Positions 1-18,102 of a stretch of DNA of 22,124 nt are shown in pieces (position 1 is the first letter of the stretch; every line of letters starts with the position of its first letter). The stretch spans positions 1-22,124 of IMG/VR virus record IMGVR_UViG_2698536657_000008, one strand, 5' to 3'. Made by a program: the position numbers and the translations under genes. The DNA is from a virus (lineage: Duplodnaviria; Heunggongvirae; Uroviricota; Caudoviricetes). The notes under the pieces were generated by a model. It saw only the letters and a list, made by a program, of their open reading frames with translations. It was not told the DNA's origin and searched no databases.

Positions 1-87
1 CAATACTCCACCCTTTAAGACTGAGCCAGATGATTGGATCCAGCCGGGGCTGAATTATCTCAAAGGGCGGATATAAGTTCAGGGGCG

Positions 88-402
88 TTATCTGTTACCT
101 GATAATTGTCTGAACAGGCGATCTTTTTGTGATTTGGCGTAATGATTATCCCATTCGCAATCAAGGTAACTTAATTCTTCATTTAACCAGTCATCTATAT
201 TGTCTTTCAGGCGAAGGAGCAAGGTTGGCGTTAATGCTCCGGATATAATACTGAGAGTTGCAGTAGTGAGAGCTCCATACGGTTCAGCCTGAATGGCCTT
301 TACTGCTTTGTGTTCTTGCGGGAGGAGTAAGAGGCATTCCGATTTTACCCGCTCATTTATGGCTTGCAGGCATAAATCATAATTATGTTGATGGTTATGC
401 AT
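88..402 (-). CDS. Hypothetical protein (104 aa) on the opposite strand, immediately upstream of the endolysin
   Basis: Minus-strand ORF. ATG at 402-400 is preceded on the minus strand by GAGGA with a 6-nt spacer. The track's 150-aa version starts at a TTG at 540 and would overlap the endolysin start, so the shorter form is preferred. No family recognised. Flanking DNA looks AT-richer than the structural genes. Confidence 0.4.
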   Translation of the reverse strand: MHNHQHNYDLCLQAINERVKSECLLLLPQEHKAVKAIQAEPYGALTTATLSIISGALTPTLLLRLKDNIDDWLNEELSYLDCEWDNHYAKSQKDRLFRQLSGNR

Positions 403-530
403 GGTTAATCCTCGACTGGAATTGTCAGATATATTTTCAGCCAGCAGATAAAACGCCAGTGCCCACCACTGGCGGGCTGAAGACTTAACATATCCAGGGA
501 TTCGGAACCGATAAATCCTGATAAATATCC

Positions 531-1064
531 ATGAACGCAAAAATCAGATACGGCCTGTCGGCTGCCGTTCTGGCGCTGATTGCCGCAGGGGCGCCTGCGC
601 CTGATATTCTCGACCAGTTTCTTGACGAAAAAGAAGGCAACCACACCACAGCATACCGTGATGGTGCGGGTATCTGGACCATCTGCCGAGGTGCCATCAT
701 GGTGGATGGTAAGCCTGTGATTCCTGGCATGAAGCTGTCGAAGGAAAAATGCGACTGGGTTAACGCTATCGAACGGGATAAGGCGCTGGCGTGGGTGGAG
801 AAAAACATCAGAGTGCCACTGACCGAACCCCAGAAAGCGGGGATCGCGTCATTCTGTCCGTACAACATTGGTCCCGGTAAGTGTTTCCCGTCGACGTTTT
901 ACAGACGAATTAATGCTGGTGATCGCAGGGGAGCATGCGAGGCGATTCGCTGGTGGATTAAGGACGGTGGCAGAGACTGCCGTATTCGTTCAAACAACTG
1001 TTACGGTCAGGTATCCCGTCGTGACCAGGAGAGCGCGCTGGCGTGCTGGGGTATCGACAGATAA
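531..1064 (+). CDS. SAR endolysin (T4-lysozyme-fold, GH24 muramidase with N-terminal signal-anchor-release segment)
   Basis: 177 aa. N-terminal weakly hydrophobic Gly/Ala-rich stretch GLSAAVLALIAAGAPAP, followed by Glu/Asp/Thr in the spacing of the catalytic triad of T4-type lysozymes (EKEGNHTTAYRDGAGIWTICRG). Resembles phage 21 R / P1 Lyz-type endolysins from memory. Position directly upstream of Rz/Rz1. Confidence 0.85.
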   Translation: MNAKIRYGLSAAVLALIAAGAPAPDILDQFLDEKEGNHTTAYRDGAGIWTICRGAIMVDGKPVIPGMKLSKEKCDWVNAIERDKALAWVEKNIRVPLTEPQKAGIASFCPYNIGPGKCFPSTFYRRINAGDRRGACEAIRWWIKDGGRDCRIRSNNCYGQVSRRDQESALACWGIDR

Positions 1065-2386: not shown

Positions 2387-2602
2387 CGCGCGTTTTCACT
2401 ATTTATGAGATTTTTTGAGGGGGTGGTTGTTGTTTAATTGTTTGGTATATCTAATTGATAAGTAAGGTGAAAATAAAATAAATACAACAACCTTACGATG
2501 TGTTTTGATGTCATTAATGTGAAAAAATTCAATGATATCAAATGTTTTTGTAAAAACACATGGTTGTTGTATCGCTTTTTATCGATGACTTATGGAGAGG
2601 AG
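2387..2602 (+). promoter_or_regulatory. cosB: cosB-like terminase-binding region between cosN and Nu1
   Basis: AT-rich 216 bp with three copies of GGTTGTTGT(A/T)T: 2425-2433 (+), 2483-2493 (inverted) and 2562-2572 (+). The arrangement resembles the lambda R3-R2-R1 gpNu1-binding elements; a strong Shine-Dalgarno GGAGAGGAG sits just before the Nu1 ATG. Confidence 0.55.
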
Positions 2603-3109
2603 ATGGCCTTTTTATTGAATAAAAGTGATATGGCCTCCTCCATCGGTATCTCTGTTCAGGCATTTGATAAATGGGGCGTTCCTCCTGTTGAGCGTCGGGG
2701 GAGGGAAGTTTTTTATGACGTTAAAACTGTACTGGAGATAGATCGCGAGCGGCGACAACACAATCAGAGAACACCTGATGACGAGGGCGATCTGGAGGAA
2801 AGGCTGCTTCGGGCCAGAGCTGAACTGACAGAAGAACAGGCCGTAGCTCAAAAACTTAAAAATCAGGTAACCGAAGGTAAGCTTATTGACACCGGATTCT
2901 GTATTTTTGCCCTCAGTAAGCTGGCAATGGCGTTATCCAGTACGCTTGATTCCATCCCTTTATCCATGCAGCGACAGTTTCCTGATTTAACACCGCGCCA
3001 TCTTGACCATCTGAAAACCCTTATTGCGAAGGGAGCAAATCAGTGTGCGCGGGCAGGGGATAAATTACCGGATTTGCTGGATGAATATATCAGAGCAACA
3101 ACTGAATAA
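2603..3109 (+). CDS. Nu1: Terminase small subunit (gpNu1-like)
   Basis: Start chosen at the internal ATG 2603 (MAFLLNKSD...) with a Shine-Dalgarno sequence immediately upstream; the track ORF start at 2498 would run through cosB. C-terminal half aligns with lambda Nu1 as recalled (FC.F.LS...LP.LLDEYI). Confidence 0.9.
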   Translation: MAFLLNKSDMASSIGISVQAFDKWGVPPVERRGREVFYDVKTVLEIDRERRQHNQRTPDDEGDLEERLLRARAELTEEQAVAQKLKNQVTEGKLIDTGFCIFALSKLAMALSSTLDSIPLSMQRQFPDLTPRHLDHLKTLIAKGANQCARAGDKLPDLLDEYIRATTE

Positions 3110-5009
3110 TATGATGGCTGCCGTTTCGGTTGCGCTGCAGCCTCTGGTCAGGGTTGTGCCGATGACGGCAGTTGAATGGGCTGATCAAAATTATTATCTG
3201 CCGAAAGAATCCTCATACGGTGACGGCGAATGGAAAACGCTGCCGTTCCAGGTCGCCATCATGAACTGTATGGGTAACGACCAGGTTCGCACGGTTAATC
3301 TGATAAAATCTGCCCGTGTTGGCTATACAAAGATGTTGCTGGGTGTCGCCGGGTATTTTATTGAACATAAATCCCGAAACTGTCTGCTTTTTCAGCCCAC
3401 GGATTCTGCCGCTGAAGATTTTATGAAATCTCACGTGGAATCCACGATTCGCGATGTTCCCTGTCTGAAAGCCCTTTCTCCCTGGCTGGGACGTAAACAT
3501 CGTGATAATACCCTCACGCTGAAACGCTTTTCATCGGGTGTGGGTTTCTGGTGCCTGGGTGGTGCTGCCGCCAAAAACTACCGTGAAAAATCCGTGGACG
3601 TGGTCTGCTATGACGAACTTTCCTCGTTCGAGCCGGATGTCGAAAAAGAGGGCTCGCCAACCCTGCTGGGGGATAAACGTATTGAGGGTTCTGTATGGCC
3701 AAAATCCATTCGCGGCTCGACGCCAAAAATAAAAGGCACCTGCCAGATCGAAAAAGCGGCCAACGAGTCGGCGCATTTCATGCGTTTTTATGTTCCCTGC
3801 CCGCACTGTGGGGAGGAGCAGTATCTGAAATTTGGCGATGAATCCACGCCTTTTGGCCTTAAATGGGAGAAGGACAGCCCCGAAAGCGTTTTCTACCTCT
3901 GTGAACATCATGGCTGCGTGATCCATCAGTCTGAGCTTGACCAGAGCAACGGGCGCTGGATCTGTGAAAACACGGGGATGTGGACCCGTGACGGCCTGAT
4001 GTTTTTCAGCGCCCGGGGTGATGAAATTCCACCACCGCGCTCCATCACGTTCCATATCTGGACGGCGTACAGTCCGTTCACCACCTGGGTACAGATAGTC
4101 TATGACTGGCTGGATGCACTGAAAGATCCCAACGGCGTGAAAACCTTTGTGAACACCACGCTGGGCGAGACCTGGGAAGAGGCTGTGGGCGAAAAACTTG
4201 ATCACCAGGTGCTGATGGATAAGGTCGTGCATTACACGGCGGCGGTACCTGACCGGGTGGTTTATCTGACGGCGGGCATTGACTCGCAGCGAAACCGTTT
4301 TGAGATGTATGTCTGGGGATGGGCACCGGGAGAGGAAGCCTTTCTGGTGGATAAAATCATCATTATGGGCCGTCCTGATGAGGAAGAGACGCTGTTACGT
4401 GTGGATGCGGCGATCAACAAAAAATACCGCCATGCAGATGGTGCCGAAATGACCATTTCCCGTGTCTGCTGGGACACCGGGGGGATCGATGGCGAAATCG
4501 TTTATCAGAGGTCAAAAAAACACGGTGTTTTCCGGGTGCTGCCGGTAAAAGGCGCATCTGTCTATGGCAAGCCGGTGATCACCATGCCAAAAACCCGCAA
4601 TCAGCGGGGCGTGTATCTGTGTGAAGTGGGGACGGACACCGCAAAAGAAATTCTCTATGCCCGTATGAAAGCCGATCCCACGCCTGCGGATGAAGCCACG
4701 TCGTATGCCATCCGTTTTCCTGATGATCCGGAGATTTTTTCGCAGACAGAGGCGCAGCAACTGGTGGCGGAAGAGCTTGTGGAGAAGTGGGAAAAAGGAA
4801 AGATGCGTCTGCTGTGGGATAACAAAAAGCGGCGTAACGAAGCGCTGGACTGCCTGGTGTATGCCTACGCGGCATTACGTGTGTCCGTGCAACGCTGGCA
4901 GCTTGATCTGGCTGTACTGGCAAAATCCCGGGAAGAAGAGACGACCCGGCCAACCCTTAAAGAACTGGCAGCGAAGCTGTCCGGAGGAGTGAATGGTTAC
5001 AGTCGCTGA
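3081..5009 (+). CDS. A: Terminase large subunit (gpA-like; ATPase/endonuclease)
   Basis: Start at ATG 3081 (MNISEQQ...), overlapping the Nu1 3' end as in lambda. Very strong similarity to lambda gpA throughout (e.g. AVEWAD.NYYLPKES, SPFTTWVQIV, VNTTLGETWE). Confidence 0.95.
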   Translation: MNISEQQLNNMMAAVSVALQPLVRVVPMTAVEWADQNYYLPKESSYGDGEWKTLPFQVAIMNCMGNDQVRTVNLIKSARVGYTKMLLGVAGYFIEHKSRNCLLFQPTDSAAEDFMKSHVESTIRDVPCLKALSPWLGRKHRDNTLTLKRFSSGVGFWCLGGAAAKNYREKSVDVVCYDELSSFEPDVEKEGSPTLLGDKRIEGSVWPKSIRGSTPKIKGTCQIEKAANESAHFMRFYVPCPHCGEEQYLKFGDESTPFGLKWEKDSPESVFYLCEHHGCVIHQSELDQSNGRWICENTGMWTRDGLMFFSARGDEIPPPRSITFHIWTAYSPFTTWVQIVYDWLDALKDPNGVKTFVNTTLGETWEEAVGEKLDHQVLMDKVVHYTAAVPDRVVYLTAGIDSQRNRFEMYVWGWAPGEEAFLVDKIIIMGRPDEEETLLRVDAAINKKYRHADGAEMTISRVCWDTGGIDGEIVYQRSKKHGVFRVLPVKGASVYGKPVITMPKTRNQRGVYLCEVGTDTAKEILYARMKADPTPADEATSYAIRFPDDPEIFSQTEAQQLVAEELVEKWEKGKMRLLWDNKKRRNEALDCLVYAYAALRVSVQRWQLDLAVLAKSREEETTRPTLKELAAKLSGGVNGYSR

Positions 5010-5199
5010 ACTGCAGGCGCTGCGTCAGGCGCGCCTTGATTTATTAACCGGTAAACGGGTGGTGTCTGTCCAGAAAGATGGTCGCAAAATTGAATATACG
5101 GCGGCCTCTCTGGATGAGCTTAACCGTGCGATCAATGATGCTGAGTCGGTACTGGGGACAACCCGACGTCGCCGTCGTCCGCTGGGAGTGAGGTTATGA
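4993..5199 (+). CDS. W: Head-tail joining / head-completion protein (gpW-like)
   Basis: 68 aa, same length as lambda gpW, with similar sequence (L.TGKRV..VQKDGR..E.TA.S). GGAGG before the ATG. Position between A and B. Confidence 0.9.
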   Translation: MVTVAELQALRQARLDLLTGKRVVSVQKDGRKIEYTAASLDELNRAINDAESVLGTTRRRRRPLGVRL

Positions 5200-6788
5200 A
5201 ACGAACGCCTGTCCTGATTGATGTGAACGGCGTTCCGCTTCGTGAGAGTCTCAGCTACCACGGGGGCGGCGCAGGATTTGGCGGGCAAATGGCGAAGTGG
5301 TTGCCACCGGCGCAGAGTGCCGATGCGGCCCTGCTGCCCGCGTTGCGTCTGGGGAATGCCCGGGCAGATGATCTGGTGCGCAATAACGGAATAGCGGCCA
5401 ATGCGGTTGCCCTGCATAAGGATCACATTGTCGGGCATATGTTTCTGATCAGCTACCGTCCGAACTGGCGCTGGCTGGGGATGCGGGAGACTGCGGCAAA
5501 AAGTTTTGTCGATGAGGTGGAGGCGGCCTGGTCGGAATACGCCGAAGGGATGTCTGGCGAGATCGACGTGGAAGGGAAACGCACGTTTACGGAATTTATC
5601 CGTGAAGGTGTGGGCGTTCATGCCTTTAACGGCGAAATCTTTGTGCAGCCGGTCTGGGATACGGAGAGCACGCAGCTGTTTCGTACGCGTTTTAAAGCCG
5701 TGAGTCCGAAACGGGTGGACACGCCGGGACACGGTATGGGGAACCGCTTTCTGCGGGCCGGTGTGGAAGTCGATCGATATGGCCGTGCCGTTGCGTACCA
5801 TATCTGTGAGGATGATTTTCCGTTCCCGGGTAGTGGTCGATGGGAGCGGATCCCGCGTGAACTTCCCACCGGGCGTCCGGCCATGCTGCATATTTTCGAG
5901 CCGGTGGAGGACGGGCAGACCCGTGGGGCCAATCAGTTTTACAGCGTCATGGAACGGCTGAAGATGCTCGATTCCCTGCAGGCAACACAGCTTCAGTCGG
6001 CCATTGTCAGGGCAATGTATGCAGCGACGATTGAAAGTGAACTTGATACCGAAAAGGCCTTTGAATATATCGCCGGTGCGCCGCAGGGGCAGAAGGATAA
6101 TCCGCTTATTCATATTCTGGAGAAGTTCTCCAGCTGGTATGACACGAATCACGTGACGCTGGGCGGTGTCAAAATTCCGCACCTTTTTCCCGGTGATGAT
6201 CTGAAACTGCAGACTGCGCAGGATTCAGACAATGGATTTTCTGCGCTTGAACAGGCGCTGCTGCGGTATATCGCCGCCGGTCTTGGCGTTTCCTACGAAC
6301 AGTTGTCCCGTGATTACTCGAAGGTCAGTTACTCAAGTGCCCGCGCCTCCGCCAATGAGTCGTGGCGCTATTTTATGGGACAACGAAAATTTATAGCGTC
6401 CCGGCTGGCCACGCAGATGTTTTCCTGCTGGCTGGAAGAGGCACTTCTTCGGGGGATTATTCGTCCGCCACGGGCGCGTTTTGATTTTTATCAGGCGCGT
6501 TCAGCCTGGTCACGGGCAGAGTGGATTGGTGCCGGAAGAATGGCCATTGACGGGCTCAAGGAAGTCCAGGAATCAGTGATGCGCATTGAGGCCGGACTGA
6601 GCACGTATGAGAAAGAGCTGGCGCTGATGGGCGAGGATTATCAGGACATTTTCCGCCAGCAGGTCAGGGAATCCGCAGAGCGGGAAAAAGCCGGACTCTC
6701 ACGCCCGGTGTGGATAGCGCAGGCGTATCAGCAGCAGATAGCGGAGAGTCGCAGGCCGGAAGAGGAGACAACACCACGTGAGACGTAA
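5196..6788 (+). CDS. B: Portal protein (gpB-like)
   Basis: 530 aa. Strong similarity to lambda gpB (YHGGG.GFGGQ, EPVEDGQTRGAN.FYSVME, LLRYIAAGLGVSYEQLSR). ATGA start-stop overlap with W. Confidence 0.95.
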   Translation: MKRTPVLIDVNGVPLRESLSYHGGGAGFGGQMAKWLPPAQSADAALLPALRLGNARADDLVRNNGIAANAVALHKDHIVGHMFLISYRPNWRWLGMRETAAKSFVDEVEAAWSEYAEGMSGEIDVEGKRTFTEFIREGVGVHAFNGEIFVQPVWDTESTQLFRTRFKAVSPKRVDTPGHGMGNRFLRAGVEVDRYGRAVAYHICEDDFPFPGSGRWERIPRELPTGRPAMLHIFEPVEDGQTRGANQFYSVMERLKMLDSLQATQLQSAIVRAMYAATIESELDTEKAFEYIAGAPQGQKDNPLIHILEKFSSWYDTNHVTLGGVKIPHLFPGDDLKLQTAQDSDNGFSALEQALLRYIAAGLGVSYEQLSRDYSKVSYSSARASANESWRYFMGQRKFIASRLATQMFSCWLEEALLRGIIRPPRARFDFYQARSAWSRAEWIGAGRMAIDGLKEVQESVMRIEAGLSTYEKELALMGEDYQDIFRQQVRESAEREKAGLSRPVWIAQAYQQQIAESRRPEEETTPRET

Positions 6789-8283
6789 TCTTTCACACAT
6801 AATTGCCGCAGCATTCAATGAACCGCTGCTTCTGGAGCCCGCCTATGCGCGGGTTTTCTTTTGCGCGCTGGGGCGCGAGATGGGGGCAGCAAGTCTTTCG
6901 GTACCACAACAGCAGGTACAGCTTGATGCTCCCGGAATGCTGGCTGAAACGGATGAGTTCATGGCCGGAGGTAAACGACCGGCCCGTGTTTACCGGGTGG
7001 TGAACGGTATTGCGGTACTGCCGGTGACCGGCACGCTGGTGCACCGGCTGGGTGGTATGCGGCCATTTTCCGGAATGACAGGTTATGACGGCATTGTAGC
7101 CTGTCTTCAGCAGGCAATGGCAGACACCTCTGTCCGTGGCGTACTGCTGGACATTGACAGTCCGGGCGGTCAGGCCGCCGGTGCGTTTGACTGCGCTGAC
7201 ATGATTTACCGCCTCCGCCAGCAGAAGCCTGTCTGGGCACTGTGCAATGACACGGCCTGTTCTGCGGCCATGCTGCTGGCGTCGGCCTGCTCCCGACGGC
7301 TGGTTACCCAGACATCCCGTATCGGCTCCATTGGCGTGATGATGAGCCATGTCAGCTATGCCGGTCATCTGGCGCAGGCCGGAGTGGATATCACGCTGAT
7401 TTATGCCGGGGCGCACAAGGTGGATGGCAATCAGTTTGAAGCCTTACCGGCAGAGGTGCGTCAGGACATGCAGCAGCGCATTGATGCGGCGCACCGGATG
7501 TTTGCCGAAAAAGTGGCGATGTATACCGGGCTGTCTGTGGATGCGGTCACGGGGACAGAGGCTGCCGTTTTTGAAGGTCAGTCCGGTATTGAGGCCGGGC
7601 TGGCGGATGAATTAATCAATGCGTCGGATGCCATCAGTGTGATGGCTGCGGCGCTGAACAGTAATGTCAGAGGAGGCACTATGCCGCAATTAACCGCAAC
7701 GGAAGCTGCCGCGCAGGAGAACCAGCGGGTGATGGGGATCCTGACGTGTCAGGAAGCGAAAGGACGTGAACAGCTTGCCACGATGCTGGCAGGACAACAG
7801 GGCATGAGCGTTGAACAGGCCCGGGCGATTCTGGCCGCGGCAGCACCACAGCAGCCGGTGGCATCCGCGCAGAGTGAAGCCGATCGCATTATGGCGTGTG
7901 AAGAAGCTAAAGGTCGTGAACAACTGGCGGCAACGCTGGCGGCGATGCCGGATATGACGGTGGAAAAAGCCCGCCCGATCCTGGCTGCTTCACCGCAGGC
8001 GGATGCCGGCCCCTCACTCCGTGATCAGATTATGGCTCTGGATGAGGCAAAAGGGGCTGAGGCGCAGGCTGAAAAACTGGCGGCGTTTCCCGGAATGACG
8101 GTGGAGGCTGCCCGCGACATTCTGTCCTCATCTCCGGATAAAGCAGAACCGGTTTCTGCATCCACAACCGCCATGTTTGAACGCATCATGGCGAACCATT
8201 CACCGGCAGCGGTACAGGGGGGCGTGTCACAGACCTCGGCAGACGGTGATGCGGACGTGAAAATGCTCATGGCCATGCCATGA
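6778..8283 (+). CDS. C: Prohead protease / capsid assembly protein (gpC-like, S49/ClpP-fold) with C-terminal scaffold-like extension
   Basis: Strong similarity to lambda gpC in the N-terminal ~330 aa (FNEPL.LEPAYARVFFCAL, VMNGIAVLPV.GTL, VWAL.ND..CSA). Apparent GTG start at 6778 overlapping the B 3' end; exact start uncertain. The C-terminal region is longer than lambda's because of a triplicated motif. Confidence 0.88.
   Translation: MRRNLSHIIAAAFNEPLLLEPAYARVFFCALGREMGAASLSVPQQQVQLDAPGMLAETDEFMAGGKRPARVYRVVNGIAVLPVTGTLVHRLGGMRPFSGMTGYDGIVACLQQAMADTSVRGVLLDIDSPGGQAAGAFDCADMIYRLRQQKPVWALCNDTACSAAMLLASACSRRLVTQTSRIGSIGVMMSHVSYAGHLAQAGVDITLIYAGAHKVDGNQFEALPAEVRQDMQQRIDAAHRMFAEKVAMYTGLSVDAVTGTEAAVFEGQSGIEAGLADELINASDAISVMAAALNSNVRGGTMPQLTATEAAAQENQRVMGILTCQEAKGREQLATMLAGQQGMSVEQARAILAAAAPQQPVASAQSEADRIMACEEAKGREQLAATLAAMPDMTVEKARPILAASPQADAGPSLRDQIMALDEAKGAEAQAEKLAAFPGMTVEAARDILSSSPDKAEPVSASTTAMFERIMANHSPAAVQGGVSQTSADGDADVKMLMAMP
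7498..8283 (+). CDS. Nu3: Candidate nested in-frame scaffold protein (gpNu3-like), sharing frame and stop with C
   Basis: By analogy with lambda, where Nu3 is translated from an internal in-frame start in the 3' third of C. The in-frame ATG at 7498 (MFAEKVAMYTGLSV...) lies at the position equivalent to the lambda Nu3 start as recalled. The start is not proven. Confidence 0.35.
   Translation: MFAEKVAMYTGLSVDAVTGTEAAVFEGQSGIEAGLADELINASDAISVMAAALNSNVRGGTMPQLTATEAAAQENQRVMGILTCQEAKGREQLATMLAGQQGMSVEQARAILAAAAPQQPVASAQSEADRIMACEEAKGREQLAATLAAMPDMTVEKARPILAASPQADAGPSLRDQIMALDEAKGAEAQAEKLAAFPGMTVEAARDILSSSPDKAEPVSASTTAMFERIMANHSPAAVQGGVSQTSADGDADVKMLMAMP
7726..8160 (+). repeat. Intragenic tandem triplication of a ~45-residue motif in the C/Nu3 C-terminal region
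   Basis: Motif [RQ]-[IV]-M-x3-EAKG-x-E-x-LA-x2-LA-x2-P-x-MTVE-x-AR-x-IL-x3-P occurs three times in frame, with the motif ATG at 7732, 7891 and 8032 (units of 159 and 141 nt). Lambda has a single copy as recalled. Confidence 0.6.
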
Positions 8284-8319
8284 AGTCAGTGCTGACCATC
8301 AATATGAGGTTTTTACAAT

Positions 8320-8667
8320 ATGGTAACGAAAACCATCACTGAACAACGTGCAGAAGTACGTATTTTTGCCGGTAATGATCCGGCTCATACCGCCACAGGC
8401 AGCAGCGGGATTTCTCAGGCAACACCGGCACTGACGCCCCTGATGCTGGATGAAGCCAGCGGGAAACTGGTGGTCTGGGACGGACAGAAAGCCGGTAGTG
8501 CGGTTGGCATACTGGTACTGCCGCTTGAAGGCACAGAGACGGTGCTGACGTATTACAAGTCGGGGACCTTTGCGACGGAGGCAATCCGCTGGCCTGAAAG
8601 TGTGGATGAACACAAAAAGGCCAACGCCTTTGCAGGAAGTGCCCTGAGTCACGCGGCGCTGCCGTAA
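8320..8667 (+). CDS. D: Head decoration protein (gpD-like)
   Basis: 115 aa. Similarity to lambda gpD (DPAHTAT, TPLMLD, GILV...YKSGTF, FAG.A.S). Confidence 0.9.
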   Translation: MVTKTITEQRAEVRIFAGNDPAHTATGSSGISQATPALTPLMLDEASGKLVVWDGQKAGSAVGILVLPLEGTETVLTYYKSGTFATEAIRWPESVDEHKKANAFAGSALSHAALP

Positions 8668-8675
8668 CACGTTAT

Positions 8676-8695
8676 CAGGCCACCACGGTGGCCTG
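8676..8695 (+). other. GC-rich hairpin in the D-E intergenic region
   Basis: CAGGCCAC (8676-8683) pairs with GTGGCCTG (8688-8695) around a 4-nt loop. No clean downstream T-tract, so more likely an mRNA structure than a terminator. Confidence 0.3.
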
Positions 8696-8724
8696 ACTGA
8701 TTTCTGAATGAAAGGAACTGATTT

Positions 8725-9753
8725 ATGGGATTGTTTACGACCCGCCAGTTACTCGGTTATACCGAACAAAAAGTGAAATTTCGTGCGCTGTTTCTGGAGC
8801 TGTTTTTCCGCCGTACGGTGAACTTCCACACCGAAGAGGTGATGCTGGACAAAATTACCGGAAAAACGCCGGTGGCAGCCTATGTTTCTCCGGTCGTTGA
8901 AGGAAAAGTACTGCGTCATCGTGGTGGTGAAACCCGCGTGTTGCGTCCGGGCTACGTCAAGCCGAAACACGAATTTAATTACCAGCAGGCGGTGGAGCGC
9001 CTTCCCGGTGAAGATCCGGCTCAACTGAACGACCCGACCTACCGTCGTCTGCGTATCATCACCGATAACCTCAAACAGGAAGAGCATGCCATTGTTCAGG
9101 TGGAAGAAATGCAGGCGGTGAATGCCGTGCTGTATGGCAAATACACCATGGAAGGAGACCAGTTCGAGAAAATTGAGGTCGATTTTGGCAGATCGACGAA
9201 GAATAACATCATACAGGGTAGCGGTAAGGAGTGGTCAAAACAGGACCGTGACACGTTCGACCCGACATATGATATCGACCTTTTCTGTGATCAGGCCAGC
9301 GGTCTTGTGAATATTGCCATTATGGACGGTACCGTCTGGCGTCTGCTGAATGGCTTTAAGCTGTTCCGCGAAAAACTGGATACCCGTCGCGGCTCAAATT
9401 CACAACTCGAAACGGCAGTGAAAGATCTGGGCGCAGTGGTGTCCTTCAAGGGGTATTACGGCGATCTGGCCATTGTGGTGGCGAAAACGTCTTATGTGGC
9501 AGAGGACGGTACCGAAAAACGTTATCTGCCGGAGGGCACGCTGGTCCTGGGGAATACGGCTGCAGATGGGCTCCGTTGTTACGGTGCCATTCAGGATGCG
9601 CAGGCGTTGTCCGAAGGTGTGGTGGCTTCTTCCCGTTACCCGAAACACTGGCAGACCGTGGGCGATCCGGCCCGTGAATTCACCATGACGCAGTCCGCAC
9701 CGCTGATGGTGCTGCCGGATCCGGATGAGTTTGTGGTGGTGCAGGTGAAATAA
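8725..9753 (+). CDS. E: Major capsid protein (gpE-like, HK97 fold)
   Basis: 342 aa. Strong similarity to lambda gpE (PGYVKPKHE, VEEMQAV.AVL.GKYTM, LDTRRGSNS.LETAVKDLG, TGDPAREFTM.QSAPLM). Confidence 0.95.
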   Translation: MGLFTTRQLLGYTEQKVKFRALFLELFFRRTVNFHTEEVMLDKITGKTPVAAYVSPVVEGKVLRHRGGETRVLRPGYVKPKHEFNYQQAVERLPGEDPAQLNDPTYRRLRIITDNLKQEEHAIVQVEEMQAVNAVLYGKYTMEGDQFEKIEVDFGRSTKNNIIQGSGKEWSKQDRDTFDPTYDIDLFCDQASGLVNIAIMDGTVWRLLNGFKLFREKLDTRRGSNSQLETAVKDLGAVVSFKGYYGDLAIVVAKTSYVAEDGTEKRYLPEGTLVLGNTAADGLRCYGAIQDAQALSEGVVASSRYPKHWQTVGDPAREFTMTQSAPLMVLPDPDEFVVVQVK

Positions 9754-9760
9754 TCCGTGA

Positions 9761-9790
9761 GCGGGGGCGAAATGCCCCCGTGTCTTTTTT
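9761..9790 (+). terminator. Rho-independent terminator-like hairpin directly after the major capsid gene
   Basis: CGGGGGC (9762-9768), loop GAAAT, GCCCCCG (9774-9780), then TGTCTTTTTT. Confidence 0.45.
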
Positions 9791-9804
9791 CACAGGAGGC
9801 TGAG

Positions 9805-10173
9805 ATGGCAACAAAAGAAGAAAATCTGAATCGTCTTCGTGAACTGGCTGGCCTGCTGGGGCGCGAGGCGGATATGTCGGGGAGTGCTGCGGATATCGCA
9901 CAGCGTGTGGCCGAGTGGGAGGAGGAGGTTTGTGCCCCGGAAAATGAAATCGCAGATGTTGATGATGCCGTTCATGAGCAGGCATACAGGAACACCGGTG
10001 AGGATGCCTTCGGTATTCTGGAACGTATCAGGCTTCTGAAGTGTTTTTACCTGTGCGGTGTTGACGATGAAACAGGGGAGCCTGTTGAGCATGTTGATGC
10101 TGGCAGGGTAATTCTGATGCCTCCCTCAGTGGCAAAAGACATGGTCAGGAGCGGAATGGCCGTTTATGCGTGA
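9805..10173 (+). CDS. FI: DNA-packaging protein (gpFI-like)
   Basis: Position between E and FII and size (~122 aa) match lambda FI. ATG at 9805 with AGGAGG 6 nt upstream. Sequence similarity to lambda FI is weak in my recollection, so the call rests mainly on synteny. Confidence 0.7.
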   Translation: MATKEENLNRLRELAGLLGREADMSGSAADIAQRVAEWEEEVCAPENEIADVDDAVHEQAYRNTGEDAFGILERIRLLKCFYLCGVDDETGEPVEHVDAGRVILMPPSVAKDMVRSGMAVYA

Positions 10174-10519
10174 TTTTCAGAATGCCTTCGATGCTGCCCT
10201 TGCCGGGGTGGACAGCACGATTGTTGAAGTGATGGGCATCAGGGCGCAGTTCATCTCCGGTGCGCAGCGTGGCGGCGAAGTTCAGGGGGTTTTTGACGAT
10301 CCGGAGTCGCTGGGTTTTGCCGGTGGCGGGGTCCGTATTGAAGGAAGCAGCCCGTCATTATTTGTACGGACAGATACGGTGCGTGCTGTACGGCGTGGTG
10401 ACACTCTGACCATTAACGGCGAGATGTTCTGGGTGGATCGTGTTTCTCCGGATGACGGGGGCAGCTGTTATCTCTGGCTCAACCGGGGGCAGCCACCCGC
10501 AGTTAACCGGCGACGATAA
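10166..10519 (+). CDS. FII: Head-tail connector protein (gpFII-like)
   Basis: 117 aa. Strong similarity to lambda gpFII (GVFDDPE, GVR.EGSSPSLFVRTD.VR.LRRGDTLTI, FWVDRVSPDDGGSC.LWL.RG.PPAVNRRR). Confidence 0.92.
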   Translation: MRDFQNAFDAALAGVDSTIVEVMGIRAQFISGAQRGGEVQGVFDDPESLGFAGGGVRIEGSSPSLFVRTDTVRAVRRGDTLTINGEMFWVDRVSPDDGGSCYLWLNRGQPPAVNRRR

Positions 10520-10533
10520 AGACAGGTGAAATT

Positions 10534-11112
10534 ATGGCGATAAAAGGGCTTGATCAGGCAATTGACAATCTGAGCCGGGTCCGTAAAAACGCCATTCCTG
10601 GTGCTTCAGCAATGGCCATTAACCGCGTGGCCACAACGGCAATAAATCAGTCGGCATCACAGGTTGCCCGTGAAACCAGGGTGCGCCGGAAACTGGTAAA
10701 GGAAAGGGCCAGGCTTAAAAGGGCCACGGTCAAAAATCCGCAGGCCAGAATCAGGGTTAACCGGGGGGATTTGCCCGTAATCAGGCTGGGTAATGCGCGG
10801 GTTGTCCTGTCCCGACGCAGGCGTCGTAAAAAGGGGCAGCGTTCATCCCTGAAAGGTGGCGGCAGCGTGCTTGTGGTGGGTAACCGTCGTATTCCCGGCG
10901 CGTTTATTCAGCAATTAAAAAATGGCCGGTGGCATGTCATGCAGCGTGTGGCCGGGAAAAACCGTTACCCCATTGATGTGGTGAAAATCCCGATGGCGGT
11001 GCCACTGACCACGGCGTTTAAAAAGAATATTGAACGGATAAGGCGTGAACGTCTGCCGGAAGAACTGGCATACGCGCTGAAACAACAACTCAGAATTGCG
11101 ATAAAACGATGA
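10534..11112 (+). CDS. Z: Tail completion protein (gpZ-like)
   Basis: 192 aa. Near-identical to lambda gpZ across most of its length as recalled. Confidence 0.95.
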   Translation: MAIKGLDQAIDNLSRVRKNAIPGASAMAINRVATTAINQSASQVARETRVRRKLVKERARLKRATVKNPQARIRVNRGDLPVIRLGNARVVLSRRRRRKKGQRSSLKGGGSVLVVGNRRIPGAFIQQLKNGRWHVMQRVAGKNRYPIDVVKIPMAVPLTTAFKKNIERIRRERLPEELAYALKQQLRIAIKR

Positions 11113-11504
11113 AACATACTGATATCCGTGCGGCAGTGCTGGATGCACTGGAGCAGCATAAACACGGGGCGACGCTGTTTGATGGTCGCCCCGTTGTTTT
11201 TGAGGAAGAGGATTTTCCTGCGATCGCGGTTTATCTGACGGATGCAGAGTATACCGGTGAAGAGCTGGATGCAGATACCTGGCGGGCCACACTGCATATT
11301 GAGGTGTTTTTACCGGCACAGGTACCGGATTCAGAACTTGATCAGTGGATGGAAAGCCGGATTTATCCGGCGATGACAGCGATCCCTGCACTGGCAGGCC
11401 TGATTACCACGATGGTTACGCAGGGCTATGAGTATCGTCGTGATGACGATATGGCGTTATGGAGCTCGGCAGATCTGACTTATTCCATTACCTACGAAAT
11501 GTGA
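11109..11504 (+). CDS. U: Tail terminator protein (gpU-like)
   Basis: 131 aa. Strong similarity to lambda gpU ([38 protein letters not shown]). ATGA overlap with Z. Confidence 0.95.
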
Positions 11505-11511
11505 GGACGAT

Positions 11512-12261
11512 ATGGCAACACCAAATCCCCTGGCGCCGGTAAAAGGTTCCGGCACCACGCTCTGGGTTTACACCGGTAAGGGCGATGCTTATGCAAATCC
11601 GCTGTCCGATGACGAGTGGACGCGCCTGGCAAAAATAAAGGATCTGACGCCGGGCGAGATGACGGCGGAATCCTACGACGATAACTATCTGGATGATGAG
11701 GATGCGGACTGGGTATCCACCGGGCAGGGCCAGAAATCTGCCGGTGACACCAGTTTTACGCTGGCCTGGAAGCCCGGCGAGAAAGGGCAGCGTGATTTGA
11801 TTGCCTGGTTTGACAGCAGTGAGACCCGGGCTTACAAAATCCGCTTCCCGAACGGCACGGTGGATGTGTTCCGTGGCTGGGTGAGTGCCATTGGTAAAGC
11901 CGTGACGGCTAAAGAGGTGATCACCCGCACCGTGAAAATCACCAACATCGGTCGTCCGTCGCTGGCGGAAGATCGGGGTGAAATCACGCCGGTCACCGGT
12001 ATTACCGTGACACCCCAGACGGGGAATGTGGCAAAAGGTCAGAGCACCACCCTGACCGTGGCCGTTCAGCCGGAAGGGGCGACGGATAAAACGTTCCGCG
12101 CCACGTCGGCGAATCAGAATTTCGCCACCATTACCGTGAAAGGGAACACGATCACCGTGAAAGGTGTTGCGGCAGGTAAAGCGCAGATCCCTGTTGTCAC
12201 CGGTAACGGTGAGTTTGCGGCGGTGGCGGAAATTACCGTCACGGATGGCGCTGCGGGCTGA
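11512..12261 (+). CDS. V: Major tail tube protein (gpV-like) with C-terminal Ig-like domain
   Basis: 249 aa. Strong similarity to lambda gpV ([57 protein letters not shown]). Confidence 0.95.
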
Positions 12262-12276
12262 GGGAGGAGATAAAGT

Positions 12277-12699
12277 ATGTTCCTGAAAACAGAACAATTT
12301 GAATATAACGGTGTGTCCGTCACGCTTTCCGAACTGTCTGCGCTGCAGTGCTTTGATTATATGAGGTTTGTTTCAGACGCAGGACAACAGGAGACAACGG
12401 AGCATGATGCCGTGCGTATTAACCAGCGCTATCTGGATACGGCGTCCCTGCTTGTGGCGATGTCGCTCTGGCACACGCATCCTCTCAAAGGCACACTGGT
12501 CTCTCCGGAGACAGAGATGCAGCAGATCCGCCGTGAAGTGATGCTGGGATGGCCTGCTGATGCACTGAATCAGGCAACGAACCGGGTGCTTTCGCTTTCA
12601 GGTATGCTGGATAACCGGAGTGATGCAGATCCTGAACAAACCGGGAAAGCAGGCACAACTGAGTCGGTAACATCAAAAAAGCGTTCGAAGGCGAGCTGA
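12277..12699 (+). CDS. G: Tail assembly chaperone (gpG-like)
   Basis: 140 aa. Similarity to lambda gpG (MFLKTE.FE.NGV.VTLSELSALQ, LVAMSLWH.HP). GGAGGAG Shine-Dalgarno before the ATG. Confidence 0.9.
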   Translation: MFLKTEQFEYNGVSVTLSELSALQCFDYMRFVSDAGQQETTEHDAVRINQRYLDTASLLVAMSLWHTHPLKGTLVSPETEMQQIRREVMLGWPADALNQATNRVLSLSGMLDNRSDADPEQTGKAGTTESVTSKKRSKAS

Positions 12700-13139
12700 A
12701 TTTTGTCCTGAAACTGGCGCGCGAGATGGGGAGGCCTGACTGGCGCGCCATGCTTGCCGGGATGACATCCACGGAATATGCCGACTGGCGACGTTTTTAC
12801 TGCGCGCATTATTTTCAGGACACACAACTGGATGCACATTTTTCCGGGCTGATGTACGCCGTACTCAGCCTGTTTTTTTGCGATCCGGAGATGCATCCGG
12901 CGGATTTCAGTCTGCTTGTACCGAAGACAGAGGAAGAACTGACGGCAATGCCGGACGAAAATGATGTACTGATACAGAAGGCGGAGGGCCTTGCCGGTGG
13001 TGTCCGGTTCGGTGGGGGCGAAGGGCGCGATATTTTACCTTCTGCGGATGTGGAGGATGTCCCGGTGGATGATGCCGCATTAATGATGGCTTCAGCGGGG
13101 ATTTACGGAGGTGTGAGATATGTCCCGGCCAGCAGGTGA
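12277..13139 (+). CDS. T: Tail assembly chaperone G-T fusion produced by -1 frameshift (T portion 12680-13139)
   Basis: The downstream -1 frame ORF (track 12726-13139) is similar to lambda gpT (EYADW.RFY..HYF.D..LD.HFSGL.Y.VLSLFF.DP.MHP.DFSLL, GLAGGVRFG) and has no independent start before the slip site. Translated by hand through the shift: ...SKK|KAFEGELNFVLKLAREMGRPDW... Confidence 0.75.
12675..12681 (+). other. Programmed -1 ribosomal frameshift slippery heptamer A AAA AAG (G to G-T)
   Basis: In the G reading frame the heptamer reads A|AAA|AAG. The T-frame is closed by a TGA at 12660-12662 and G stops at 12697-12699, so the shift must occur in 12663-12696, where this is the only canonical X XXY YYZ site. 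Confidence 0.7.
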
Positions 13140-15735
13140 TCTGGTTATTGATTTGAGTCTGGATGCGGCCCGGTTCGATGAACAGATGGCCCGGGTCAGG
13201 CGTCATTTTTCCGGGATGGAGGCGGATGCAAGAAAAACCGCCGCTGCTGTTGAACAGAGCCTGGGCCGTCAGGCCCGGGCTGCACAAAAAGCCGGAATAT
13301 CCCTCGGGCAGTATAAGGCGGCCATGCGCACACTGCCCGCACAGTTCACGGATATAGTCACTCAGCTTGCCGGTGGTCAGAATCCCTTCCTTATCATGCT
13401 TCAGCAGGGTGGGCAGATCAGCGACTCCTTCGGCGGGCCGCTCAGCCTGCTTACCCTGCTGAAGGAGGAACTTCTCGGGATCAGGGATGCCACTGACTCA
13501 GCAGAGGATTCGCTGTCAGATACGGCAAATGCACTGGCTGAAAATGCCCGGAATGCCGGTGAACTGGGGCGATTTATGTCGGTGGCCCGTCTGGCGGCAG
13601 GCGGCGGGGTTGCCGCACTGGCCGCGCTTGCTGCTGCCGCCTGGCAGGCAGAGCAGGCTGATCGGGCCTTATTGCGTTCACTGACCCTGACCGGCGGGGC
13701 TGCGGCCACCACAACGGCAGAATTGTGGAAAATGGCCGGGGTGATCAGCGATGAAGCCGGTGGTGGCGTCAGACAGGCGGCAGAAAATCTGGCCCGTCTG
13801 GCAGAAAGCGGAAAATATACCGCCGGGCAGCTCCGGATCATGGGGGAAACCTCGCAGCGGTGGCTGCAGACGGTGGGGGACGATGCCGGGAAGGTGGAAA
13901 AAGCCTTTGAAGGGATTGCAGCAGATCCGGTGAAGGCGCTGGCCTCCCTGAATCAGCAGTATAACTTCCTGAGCGTCTCCCAGTTGCGCCATATTGATGA
14001 GCTTGAGCGCACGAAAGGTAAACAGGCTGCGGTGACGGAGGCGATGTCCCTGTTTGCGGATGTCATGAATGCGCGTCTGGAGCAACTCGATAAAGCGGCC
14101 ACGCCGGTGGAAAAAATCTGGGACGATGTTAAAACCTGGACCGCTGACGCATGGGCATGGATAGGTGATCACACGCTGGGGGCACTCAGTCTGATCACTG
14201 ACGTGGTGGCCGGAACCGTTGAGCAGGTGAAGCTGCTGCTTGTGCAGGGGGATCTGGCGCTGGCTGAATTTATTCAGTCAGCCTGGGAAACGACAAAAGA
14301 TGTCCCCGGCGTCAGTGCGCTGTTTGGCGAGCTGGCAGAAGAGAACCGGGAATTTATTGAGAAAACAAAACGCGATGAGCTGGCGCTGAGAAAATCCATT
14401 GCGGAACGGGATGCGCGTATACGCCAGGGGGAAATGGGGTATATCAGGCGTTCGCGTGCAACAGGCGTCAGCAAGGGACCGGGGCAGCAGGAAGCCGTCA
14501 GCCGTCTGGCTGAAGAGCTGAAAGGTAAAAATCGCACATCCCGGCAAACGCGCTCTGCCGGGGAGAGGGAGGAAGAGCAGGCAAGGGAAGCGCTGCTTGT
14601 CCTTGAAGCTGAACTCCGGATGCTGGAAAAACACAGCGGTGCGAATGAGAAAATCAGCCAGCAGCGCCGGGCGCTGTGGAAGGCGGAAAGCCAGTATGCG
14701 GTCCTGAAGGAGGCGGCCACAAAACGGCAGTTATCCGGGCAGGAAAAATCCCTGCTGGCCCATGAGAAAGAGACGCTGGAGTACAGACGCCAGCTGGCTG
14801 AGCTGGGCGACAAGGTTGAATACCAGAAACGGCTCAATGAGCTGGCACAGCAGGCGGCGCGTTTTGAACAGCAGCAGAGCGCGAAGCAGGCAGCCATCAG
14901 CGCAAAAGCCCGCGGTCTCACTGACCGTCAGGCGCAGCGGGAGTCTGAAGAGCAGCGTCTTCGTGACGTGTACGGCGATAATCCGCAGGCGCTGGCACAG
15001 GTCACCGGGGCACTGAAACAGACATGGGCGGATGAAGACATGCTGCGCGGTGACTGGCTGGCCGGGCTGAAGTCGGGCTGGGGCGAGTGGTCTGAGAGAG
15101 CGACGGACAGTTTTTCGCAGGTGAAAAGTGCGGCCACGCAGACCTTTGATGGTATTGCACAGAATATGGCGGCGATGCTGACCGGTGCAGAGGCAGACTG
15201 GCGGGGATTCACCCGTTCCGTGCTGTCCATGATGACAGAAATTCTGCTGAAGCAGGCCATGGTGGGGATTGTCGGGCGTATCGGCGGTGCCATTGGCGGT
15301 GCCTTCGCCGGGGGCGGGGCGCATGTCTCCACGGGAACGGCCATCAGCAGTGCGGCGGCGAACTTCAACTTTGCGACCGGCGGATTTACGGGCACGGGTG
15401 GCAAATACGAACCTGCGGGGATTGTTCACCGCGGTGAGTTTGTCTTCACGAAGGAGGCGACCAGCCGTATTGGCGTCGGTAACCTGTACCGCCTGATGCG
15501 GGGGTATGCGGAAGGCGGTTATGTGGGAGGTGAAGGAAGTCCGGCGCAGATGCGTCGCGCTGAGGGTATCCGGTTTGAGCAGAACAACAACGTGGTGATT
15601 CAGAATGACGGTACCGGCGGTCAGCCAGGGCCGCAGTTGCTGAAAGCGGTGTATGACATGGCCCGTAAGGGGGCGCGGGATGAGATTCAGGCGCAGATGC
15701 GTGACGGTGGCGTATTTTCCGGAGGCGGGCGATGA
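13120..15735 (+). CDS. H: Tail tape measure protein (gpH-like)
   Basis: 871 aa. N-terminus (GDLV.DLSLDAARFDEQMARVRRHFSG) and C-terminal ~400 aa are highly similar to lambda gpH (e.g. HSGANEKISQQRR.LWKAESQ, TGGFTGTGGKYEPAGIVHRGEFVFTKEATSRIGVGNLYRLMRGY). The central segment diverges. Confidence 0.95.
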   Translation: MSRPAGDLVIDLSLDAARFDEQMARVRRHFSGMEADARKTAAAVEQSLGRQARAAQKAGISLGQYKAAMRTLPAQFTDIVTQLAGGQNPFLIMLQQGGQISDSFGGPLSLLTLLKEELLGIRDATDSAEDSLSDTANALAENARNAGELGRFMSVARLAAGGGVAALAALAAAAWQAEQADRALLRSLTLTGGAAATTTAELWKMAGVISDEAGGGVRQAAENLARLAESGKYTAGQLRIMGETSQRWLQTVGDDAGKVEKAFEGIAADPVKALASLNQQYNFLSVSQLRHIDELERTKGKQAAVTEAMSLFADVMNARLEQLDKAATPVEKIWDDVKTWTADAWAWIGDHTLGALSLITDVVAGTVEQVKLLLVQGDLALAEFIQSAWETTKDVPGVSALFGELAEENREFIEKTKRDELALRKSIAERDARIRQGEMGYIRRSRATGVSKGPGQQEAVSRLAEELKGKNRTSRQTRSAGEREEEQAREALLVLEAELRMLEKHSGANEKISQQRRALWKAESQYAVLKEAATKRQLSGQEKSLLAHEKETLEYRRQLAELGDKVEYQKRLNELAQQAARFEQQQSAKQAAISAKARGLTDRQAQRESEEQRLRDVYGDNPQALAQVTGALKQTWADEDMLRGDWLAGLKSGWGEWSERATDSFSQVKSAATQTFDGIAQNMAAMLTGAEADWRGFTRSVLSMMTEILLKQAMVGIVGRIGGAIGGAFAGGGAHVSTGTAISSAAANFNFATGGFTGTGGKYEPAGIVHRGEFVFTKEATSRIGVGNLYRLMRGYAEGGYVGGEGSPAQMRRAEGIRFEQNNNVVIQNDGTGGQPGPQLLKAVYDMARKGARDEIQAQMRDGGVFSGGGR

Positions 15736-16061
15736 AAACATTTCGCTGGAAAGTGAAGCCGGATATGGAGGTGAACTCGCAGCCGTCGGTGCGTGAAGTG
15801 CGTTTTGGTGACGGGTATTCGCAGCGGACGGCGGCAGGACTGAATGCTGACCTGAAAACCTACAGGGTGACGCTTTCCGTGACCCGGGAGGAGGCCCGGC
15901 ATCTGGAAGCGTTCCTGGCAGAGCACGGGGGCTGGAAGGCATTTCTGTGGACGCCGCCCTATGCCTGGCGGCAGATAAAGGTGACCTGTGCCGGGTGGTC
16001 TGCGCGGGTCGGGATGCTGCGCGTTGAATTCAGCGCGGAGTTTAAGCAGGTGGTGAACTGA
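15732..16061 (+). CDS. M: Tail tip protein (gpM-like)
   Basis: 109 aa. Near-identical N-terminus to lambda gpM (MKTFRWKVKP) and conserved throughout. ATGA overlap with H. Confidence 0.95.
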   Translation: MKTFRWKVKPDMEVNSQPSVREVRFGDGYSQRTAAGLNADLKTYRVTLSVTREEARHLEAFLAEHGGWKAFLWTPPYAWRQIKVTCAGWSARVGMLRVEFSAEFKQVVN

Positions 16062-16759
16062 TGCAGGATATTCACGAAGAAAGCCTGAACGAGTCGGTTA
16101 AGTCAGAGCAGTCACCGCGGGTGGTGCTCTGGGAAATCGACCTGACGGTGCAGGGCGGTGAGCGGTATTTTTTCTGTAATGAGCTCAATGAAAAAGGGGA
16201 GCCGGTGACCTGGCAGGGGCGTGAATATCAGGCGTACCCGATTGAGGGGAGTGGCTTTGAGATGAACGGGAAGGGCAGCAGTGCCCGCCCGTCGCTGACG
16301 GTGTCCAATCTGTTCGGTCTGGTCACCGGGATGGCTGAAGACCTGCAGAGCCTGGTGGGTGCCACGGTGGTCCGCCGCCGGGTGTATGCGCGTTTTCTGG
16401 ATGCGGTGAATTTTGTGGCAGGCAATCCGGAGGCGGACCCGGAGCAGGAGCTGACGGACCGCTGGGTGGTGGAGCAGATGTCAGAGCTCACAGCCATGAC
16501 GGCTTCGTTTGTGCTGGCGACACCGACGGAGACGGACGGTGCGCTGTTTCCCGGTCGCATCATGCTGGCGAACACCTGTATGTGGGATTACCGGGGAGAG
16601 GAGTGCGGTTTCACCGGCGGGGCAGTGGCAGATGAGTTCGACAACCCCACCACGGATATCCGGAAGGACAGATGCAGTAAATGCATGCGCGGGTGTGAGA
16701 TGCGCGGCATGGTGGCTAATTTTGGCGGTTTCCTTTCCATTAATAAACTTTCGCAGTAA
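16061..16759 (+). CDS. L: Tail tip protein (gpL-like), Cys-rich C-terminus consistent with an Fe-S cluster
   Basis: 232 aa. Strong similarity to lambda gpL (VVLWEIDLT, GERYFFCNE.NEKGEPVTWQGR.YQ, GRIMLANTC.W.YRG.ECG, FGGFLSINKLSQ). Confidence 0.95.
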   Translation: MQDIHEESLNESVKSEQSPRVVLWEIDLTVQGGERYFFCNELNEKGEPVTWQGREYQAYPIEGSGFEMNGKGSSARPSLTVSNLFGLVTGMAEDLQSLVGATVVRRRVYARFLDAVNFVAGNPEADPEQELTDRWVVEQMSELTAMTASFVLATPTETDGALFPGRIMLANTCMWDYRGEECGFTGGAVADEFDNPTTDIRKDRCSKCMRGCEMRGMVANFGGFLSINKLSQ

Positions 16760-16769
16760 ATCCCGTTTT

Positions 16770-17513: not shown

Positions 17514-18091
17514 ACACGGCAGCGGAGGCCATCCGTGCCCTGTCGCTGCAGGTGCCGGGATTCCGCAGTCAGATGAACGAAGGCTGGTACCAGATACGCA
17601 TTGCCGGTGAGGATACCGCGCCGGAGGCGGTGTATGCCCGTCTTCATGAGCCGCTGAGCGGGAGGGCCGTGATTCATATTGTACCGAGGCTGGCAGGGGC
17701 CGGGGGAAATGGTGTGTTTCAGGTGGTGCTGGGGGTTGCAGCGATTGTCGGGTCATTTTTCACTGGTGGTGCAACGATGGCGTTGTGGGGCGCAGCCCTG
17801 AGTGCCGGAGGGCTGACTGCCACCACGGTGCTGTTCTCGCTGGGTGCCAGCATGATACTGGGTGGTGTGGCCCAGATGCTGGCCCCGAAGGCAAAGACGC
17901 CGGATTACCGGGCGACGGATAACGGCAAACAGAACACGTATTTTTCGTCACTGGACAACATGATTGCCCAGGGCAACCCGATGCCGGTGCCTTACGGTGA
18001 AATGCTGGTTGGTTCACGACGGATATCCCAGGATATCAGCACCCGTGATGAGGGCGGTGACGGTAAGGTGGTGGTTATCGGGCGGGGATAA
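17411..18091 (+). CDS. I: Tail tip assembly protein (gpI-like)
   Basis: 226 aa. Strong similarity to lambda gpI (RICL.GDLQRFGRRI, FSLGASM.LGGVAQMLAPKA, TDNGKQNTYFSSLDNM.AQGN). Overlaps the K 3' end by ~100 bp as in lambda. Confidence 0.9.
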   Translation: MATTNAFCLASPPLVRICLHGDLQRFGRRISLYVNTAAEAIRALSLQVPGFRSQMNEGWYQIRIAGEDTAPEAVYARLHEPLSGRAVIHIVPRLAGAGGNGVFQVVLGVAAIVGSFFTGGATMALWGAALSAGGLTATTVLFSLGASMILGGVAQMLAPKAKTPDYRATDNGKQNTYFSSLDNMIAQGNPMPVPYGEMLVGSRRISQDISTRDEGGDGKVVVIGRG

Positions 18092-18102
18092 AAATAAAAA
18101 AA

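Follow-up and report, generated by a model that had tools for sequence, protein, structure and literature searches.

An antisense open reading frame (ORF) of 104 codons, located between the lysis genes S and R of an E. coli prophage, belongs to a conserved family of small phage genes. We put at roughly one half the probability that it is a moron, carried on an AT-rich cassette of ~0.9 kb which replaced ydfR between a pinholin-type class II holin gene (S) and a SAR endolysin gene (R), and that its product is made mainly in the lysogen. The window, which is the whole stretch of 22,124 nucleotides analysed here, is by its sequence late-gene DNA of a lambda-like siphovirus prophage from E. coli. 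Downstream of R, the gene order is Rz with embedded Rz1, Nu1, terminase A, portal, protease C, capsid E, tape measure, K, I and J. The features at the left end of the window are:

2 to 76, plus strand: 3′ end of an orf5-family gene, namely the last 24 codons and the stop codon of a 185-aa gene (tblastn match).
88 to 402, minus strand: orf6-family gene, the ORF under study, encoding a predicted soluble all-helical protein of 104 aa (ORF list, PHROG 1853).
409 to 413, minus strand: Shine-Dalgarno sequence GAGGA, 6 nt ahead of the ATG at 402 (read directly).
436 to 481, minus strand: nested inverted repeat in the 5′ leader of the ORF, spanning the cassette junction (terminator-like scan match, RNA fold).
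463 to 530, no strand: endolysin-proximal conserved spacer, common to prophages without the cassette (multiple alignment, breakpoint mapping).
531 to 1064, plus strand: SAR-type endolysin gene R (Phage_lysozyme; Pfam PF00959, E 5.6e-23; hydrophobic N-terminus in the translation).

The ORF and R are divergent and separated by a spacer of 128 bp, and R is annotated as a lysozyme in every matching genome. On its other side the ORF converges with the orf5-like gene, with 11 nt between the two stop codons. An earlier reading of this DNA, made from its letters and ORFs (the sequence-only reading), had described a minus-strand ORF of 104 aa at 88..402, starting from ATG 402, and this agrees with the ORF list. 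The Shine-Dalgarno sequence it reported is also present, as the minus strand reads CGAGGATTAACC-ATG with GAGGA at 413-409 and a 6-nt spacer. It was equally right that positions 1-530 contain no plus-strand ORF of 60 aa or more (the longest has 39 aa), that a frame-2 ORF enters at the left edge and stops at 74-76, and that this DNA is richer in AT than the morphogenesis genes, since GC content is 0.43 in 1-400 and 0.52-0.63 in the latter. The DNA around the ORF is 41% GC compared with ~56% for the whole window, and GC across 2600-22000 is 0.566. For the ORF itself GC and GC3 are 0.406 and 0.375, and for R 0.549 and 0.599.

The left-edge ORF had been suggested to be the 3′ end of a holin gene, but this identification does not hold. 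A tblastn search with the 185-aa protein of locus L001 aligns its residues 162-185 with window positions 2-73 at 100% identity, and the ORF consists of the last 24 codons of this orf5-family protein. Positions 1-1100 of the window are 99.8% identical to E. coli FHI_NMBU_11, and positions 60-530 are 100% identical to E. coli strain 2012EL-2448. Both genomes carry, in this order, genes for a 71-aa class II holin, the 185-aa protein (plus strand), the 104-aa ORF (minus strand) and a lysozyme. The holin gene, which the sequence-only reading had proposed to seek further upstream, can thus be located through these 99.8-100% identical genomes directly upstream of the orf5-like gene. In NZ_CP045712 and NZ_CP027586, the annotation shows the complete orf5-like gene together with a class II holin upstream of it. 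For annotation, the idea of a missing holin is hereby corrected. Its underlying premise, that the holin gene abuts the endolysin gene, is weak for this phage group, because the S-R interval normally holds ydfR, an orf5-like gene or a fusion of both, and because a small antisense ORF beside R is very common. The Pas sRNAs described in the Stx-phage literature lie upstream of S, outside the S-R interval.

The orf5 family comprises 170+ clusters, all from E. coli. Its C-terminal ~65 aa are highly conserved (…IGRCMGYLQVAAEIEALA…PPFK…LKGRI), and its N-termini are mosaic, consisting of a coiled coil, extra inserts or a complete YdfR/DUF1327 domain. Copies are found at window 2-76, L001 7519-8076, L002 4825-5631 and L021 2501-3391.

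Alignment against prophages with the order S-ydfR-R delimits orf5 and the ORF together as an AT-rich cassette of ~0.9 kb (0.86-0.95 kb), with a GC content of 0.41-0.45 compared with 0.55 for S and R. Prophages of the O157:H7 type have the order S-ydfR-R with nothing antisense. Relative to this order, phage 86 contains an insertion of 857 bp at the extreme end of ydfR, yielding a YdfR::orf5 fusion, and in the window type ydfR is replaced by 946 bp. The right junction lies at 462/463 of the window and is common to the phage 86 and window types; the remnant of ydfR is the last 19 nt of its 3′ end, at 463-481. From this junction to the start codon of R, the spacer is conserved in >2,000 genomes whatever stands to its left, and matches to the conserved spacer in 2,214 genomes begin at window position 453-463 or at 487. 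An accessory gene inserted antisense in the lysis operon, as the sequence-only reading had proposed, is therefore what the comparison supports, given the S-ydfR-R relatives without it and an insertion that maps to 462/463. As is typical of morons, the ORF is absent from some collinear relatives, with boundaries that can be mapped, and its base composition is deviant.

Genomic context was scored in ~120 IMG/VR loci plus annotated genomes. In these, members of the orf6 family are always antisense and divergent from R at a distance of 118-147 bp, with a class II holin beyond their 3′ end; one locus has a gap of 460 bp to R instead. In the class with orf5, the two genes converge with 7-16 nt between their stop codons. 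The class without orf5 (O157 type, 51% identical) is present in 671 of 5,426 complete genomes and has neither orf5 nor a remnant of it. The window-type allele is found in 95 complete genomes. In a more distant phage (38% identity), the convergent pair precedes an HNH gene and a lambda-type holin; its orf5 gene is 30% identical, and the two genes of the pair overlap by 33 bp at their 3′ ends. Finally, a chromosomal integrative conjugative element (ICE) of the TIGR03756/7 type carries a homologue of 31-37% identity in its accessory region; this homologue occurs in 36 complete genomes (L149 9281-9598 on the E. coli SF-088 chromosome, also L010-L012). The family is not lysis-specific, since a 37%-identical homologue resides in an ICE accessory region near ardA. 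This homologue is co-oriented after a hydrophobic protein of 188-217 aa and lies near a type B L31 gene, with ardA a few kb away.

The recurrence of orf5 next to the ORF raises the question of whether both form a functional pair, resembling a toxin and antidote or an effector and regulator. The orf5 product would come from the late transcript and, in the silent prophage, be neutralised by the antisense ORF or by the ORF's own transcript as it extends into orf5 and S. We consider this unlikely. At least five diverged lineages retain the convergent pair, with 7-16 nt between stops or the 33-bp overlap; one is the phage with the lambda-type holin, where the pair precedes the holin gene. Both genes also diverge in parallel, with orf6/orf5 identities falling through 78/83, 67/65, 54/49, 52/45 and 38/30%, whereas S and R remain 90-100% identical; simple linkage, however, predicts parallel divergence as well. 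The AlphaFold2 (AF2) model of orf5 is poor (pLDDT 54.5 overall), and its conserved C-terminal 65 aa have a pLDDT <50. A domain that needs its partner in order to fold could give such values, but a shallow alignment may equally account for this. Against a pair stands the fact that each gene is often found alone. The commonest orf6 allele is the O157 type without orf5, and orf5 exists without orf6, in one form fused to YdfR (296 aa) and placed directly before R, where an antisense gene is absent, and in another (213 aa) beside an unrelated antisense ORF. In addition, the ICE homologue has a different neighbour, and neither protein matches any toxin-antitoxin (TA) or defence model. A type II TA pair in particular was rejected, as the genes are convergent and form no operon, each is widely found alone, and there is no Pfam or PADLOC TA match.

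The protein encoded by the ORF matches PHROG 1853, a profile labelled as function unknown, with an E value of 5.3e-43 (residues 1-103 against profile positions 57-158 of 159), and the same profile is matched by the O157-type, L015-type and ICE homologues. No family was matched in Pfam (E up to 0.1) or NCBIfam, and PF07041 (YdfR/DUF1327) was among the Pfam families without a match at this threshold. PADLOC-DB 2.0 defence models returned 0 families at E up to 0.1 for this protein and for orf5, and no similarity was found to known defence, anti-defence, exclusion or regulator families. A search of 5.8 billion proteins yielded 13 clusters and a profile search 42; further members of ~105 aa, with identities down to 28-44%, came from an exhaustive HMMER scan of 1.84 billion representatives. 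The matches in these 5.8 + 1.84 billion proteins are only hypothetical proteins of E. coli / E. albertii, plus a few giant repetitive proteins, and no relatives came up when GTDB species representatives were scanned with two patterns. The identical protein occurs on at least 1,000 contigs, E. albertii among them, and its database name is always "hypothetical". In the literature on Stx-phage lysis cassettes, YdfR and prophage sRNAs, we found nothing on the gene.

AF2 models the protein as a five-helix bundle (pLDDT 88.5, pTM 0.83) from only 9 sequences, and the predicted fold has no match in PDB or BFVD. The protein is mildly acidic (pI 5.9) and has no transmembrane (TM) segment, signal peptide or lipobox; its maximum 19-residue hydropathy of 1.49 is under the TM threshold, and the same stretch is polar in homologues. 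The product is thus predicted to be a small, cytoplasmic, soluble five-helix-bundle protein. A holin or antiholin was considered and rejected, given the lack of a TM segment, the soluble bundle modelled by AF2, the opposite strand and the presence of a real class II holin upstream.

These properties also bear on whether the protein regulates lysis, for instance as an inhibitor or timer of the pinholin/SAR-endolysin pathway. Phage members of the family are always found in or beside the lysis cassette, and almost always hard by a SAR endolysin with a class II holin, as a regulator of this kind might be. We nevertheless judge such a role very unlikely. The ORF is transcribed against the late operon, so co-expression with S and R from pR′ would not be possible. 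To our knowledge, antiholins and SAR-endolysin regulators act at the membrane, but the ORF protein has neither a TM segment nor a signal peptide. Moreover, a homologue resides in an ICE without lysis genes, and related prophages with the same S and R (90-100% identical) lack the ORF. Of the roles put forward by the sequence-only reading (lysis timing, exclusion and conversion), lysis timing is least favoured because of the orientation, the absence of a membrane segment and the ICE homologue.

The pattern of substitution marks the ORF as a genuine gene under purifying selection. Conservation in related prophages, whose absence the sequence-only reading would have counted against its proposal, is evident: pairwise dN/dS in the ORF frame is 0.13-0.33, with synonymous sites saturated between subfamilies. 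Relatives keep a frame of 104-105 aa down to 28-38% identity, and Met1 is invariant throughout the alignments of the orf6 family. Some family copies are frameshifted or truncated (P0011-P0013). The stop-to-stop frame extends to 540 and would encode 150 aa if begun at TTG; the chance of a 150-codon open frame at the local base composition is P ~1.3e-4. The start can be fixed at ATG 402, and not at the upstream TTG, because Met1 is invariant and the upstream sequence differs between subfamilies; the 150-aa version from TTG 540 was discarded on these grounds, and the upstream DNA holds the leader repeat and the R start. Database annotation varies in this respect. In some entries, as in the 159-position PHROG 1853 profile, the window-type ORF begins further upstream, at a position overlapping the endolysin start (window 88-540). 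RefSeq calls the O157 allele WP_000138558.1 (copies at L007 3959-4273 and L027 6001-6315) as 90 aa from an internal Met, which is 14 codons too short, as the 104-aa ORF aligns over its full length.

Expression signals are the weakest part of the case. Neither the window type nor the O157 type has a sigma-70-like promoter for the ORF that reaches the threshold of the scan. The best promoter-like site, on the minus strand, is weak (7/12) and consists of TTTATC at 515-510, a 17-nt spacing and TATGTT at 492-487. It is equally conserved in prophages without any antisense gene, so its conservation may serve R. In the L004 type a single site, TTTACA-17-TATGTT, scores 9/12, which is within chance expectation. 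No terminator is recognisable after the ORF, in the 11 nt between the two stop codons, and a transcript would run antisense into orf5 and S.

The 5′ leader contains a nested inverted repeat, TTCAGCC ... CGCCAGTG-loop-CACTGGCG ... GGCTGAA, which extends across the right junction of the cassette. Its outer arms are TTCAGCC/GGCTGAA (481-475 with 442-436), and its inner 8-bp hairpin at 474-454 is followed by TTTTAT (453-448). The RNA fold has a predicted energy of -33.7 kcal/mol (z -2.3). This repeat recurs before orf6 relatives in three contexts and before two unrelated cargo ORFs (L002, L015/16, L018, L024, L086), and in these loci a conserved ATGGCTGA motif is located 25-45 nt ahead of each start codon. 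Although the repeat is 96.6% paired, its covariation does not exceed that of shuffles and its T-run is not conserved, so we do not put it forward as a terminator or riboswitch-like element; it may be an RNA element, an operator or a recombination boundary. The hairpin and T-run lie between the candidate promoter and the ORF and could attenuate expression rather than permit it. A sequence in the leader resembling a LexA box was dismissed when read by eye, as its right half-site is wrong, and Rfam gave no match in the S-R region or in the whole window.

That the open frame is fortuitous or a decaying remnant, with its antisense RNA or nothing at all being of consequence, would fit the lack of a convincing promoter or terminator, the frameshifted or truncated copies and the uniform name 'hypothetical protein', but it is extremely improbable in view of the dN/dS values with saturated synonymous sites, the conservation of length and start codon across distant relatives, the strong Shine-Dalgarno sequence, the confident helical bundle obtained from so few sequences, and a chance P of ~1e-4.

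As a moron of the lysogen, the ORF would be transcribed from a weak promoter of its own in the 128-bp spacer beside R, against the Q-dependent late transcript. Because of this opposition, its product would be made mainly while the late operon is silent, i.e. in the lysogen, and head-on late transcription would shut it down after induction, in parallel to bor of lambda. The small soluble bundle might act by binding another protein, although we hold this with low confidence. With similarly low confidence, the ORF may serve the lysogen or mobile element in conflicts with other elements, by exclusion, defence or host modulation, and not in lysis; we infer that this is the most plausible class of role.

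The position of the ORF is not unique to its family. Three other families of antisense ORFs occupy the same slot beside R; they are 90-95 aa long, have a GC content of 0.40-0.45 and are divergent from R by ~105-125 bp. In complete E. coli genomes the slot is filled by PHROG 2411 in 1,122 cases, by PHROG 18136 in 29-58 and by PHROG 10490 in 16. With PHROG 1853 included, occurrences amount to at least ~1,900 across 5,426 complete E. coli genomes. Slot ORFs of these four families are located, among others, at L018 1178-1453, L020 1167-1439, L024 3402-3689 and L007 3959-4273 (the last being an O157-type orf6). For PHROGs 18136 and 2411, the two of the three that were compared, no homology to the orf6 family was detected (hhalign probability <1%). 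As several families occupy the same slot, a small antisense gene beside R is common rather than exceptional, and about one in three complete E. coli genomes has some such gene there, among them most of O157:H7 and numerous other STEC.

A broader proposal is that the S-R interval is a dedicated hot spot for exchangeable, antisense, lysogen-expressed small proteins, with at least four unrelated families and a shared R-proximal leader. These would form an uncharacterised layer of prophage functions in conflict, for example to exclude superinfecting phages or to prevent lysis from setting in too early, and orf5/orf6 would be a new two-component module, with late transcription from the opposite direction as its switch. 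We regard this proposal as quite unlikely. If the slot genes are lysogen-expressed, they would be candidates for lysogenic conversion or phage exclusion, encoded in the same late region as stx. Lying head-on to the late operon, they could also influence when lysis occurs and, with it, when toxin is released.

Three other parts of the window were noted. Just past R, positions 1155-1195 contain a strong hairpin followed by a T-run (AAAAACCCCG…CGGGGTTTTGTGTTT) in the late operon, and a 50-aa ORF with a hydrophobic C-terminus (1246-1398) stands immediately before Rz (1400-1867, with Rz1 embedded at 1620-1805). In related genomes, the R-Rz interval holds an antirepressor or other small ORFs and looks like another variable slot. 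The lowest GC content of the window (0.38) is reached at 2401-2800, a stretch that lies just ahead of the Nu1-like small terminase gene and runs into its start; this is presumably the cos/packaging region. The intergenic region between I and J (18160-18428, GC 0.46) contains a tandem duplication with a period of ~180 bp (a 57-nt core with 81% identity and a further 15-nt repeat). It contains no notable ORF, gave no match in Rfam, and may be where a small RNA or a moron is located within the tail operon.

Among known systems, the closest counterparts of the ORF are in Stx2-converting phages. The orf6 gene of phage 86 (BAF34038.1) has 78% identity and equal length, and shares the antisense position between S and R and the convergent orf5; by alignment, the two differ as alleles only. 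In the Stx2a phages Stx2_12E129 (strain 12E129), the equivalent gene is 97% identical and equally long, with the same position and convergent orf5 neighbour. The orf5 genes themselves differ, as that of phage 86 encodes 268 aa, fused to a complete N-terminal YdfR domain (DUF1327, PF07041), whereas that of the window encodes 185 aa with a coiled-coil N-terminus. The usual occupant of the S-R interval is YdfR/DUF1327 (Qin prophage type), with the cassette inserted at ydfR or replacing it. YdfR differs from the ORF in being encoded on the late (plus) strand and is unrelated to it in sequence. [quoted passage not shown]

More broadly, the ORF resembles the morons of lambdoid phages, which are likewise extra genes in some collinear relatives, with deviant composition and inside an essential operon. 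The exclusion gene gp15 of HK97 is an example. A classical moron is flanked by its own promoter and terminator; for the ORF, the scans found no convincing example of either. The bor gene of lambda is antisense to the late operon next to Rz and is expressed in lysogens; like the ORF, it is a small opposite-strand gene at the lysis end of the late operon, and phage 86 carries a bor gene so oriented next to Rz. In contrast, Bor is an exported outer-membrane lipoprotein encoded downstream of Rz, whereas the ORF protein is encoded between S and R and has no similarity to Bor in sequence or fold. The families of PHROGs 2411, 18136 and 10490 are, like orf6, small, AT-rich and antisense, and the leader inverted repeat is found with two of them. 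The ORF is genuine but a fairly ordinary representative of a familiar type of element, and its most notable aspect is the populated antisense slot that it shares with these families.
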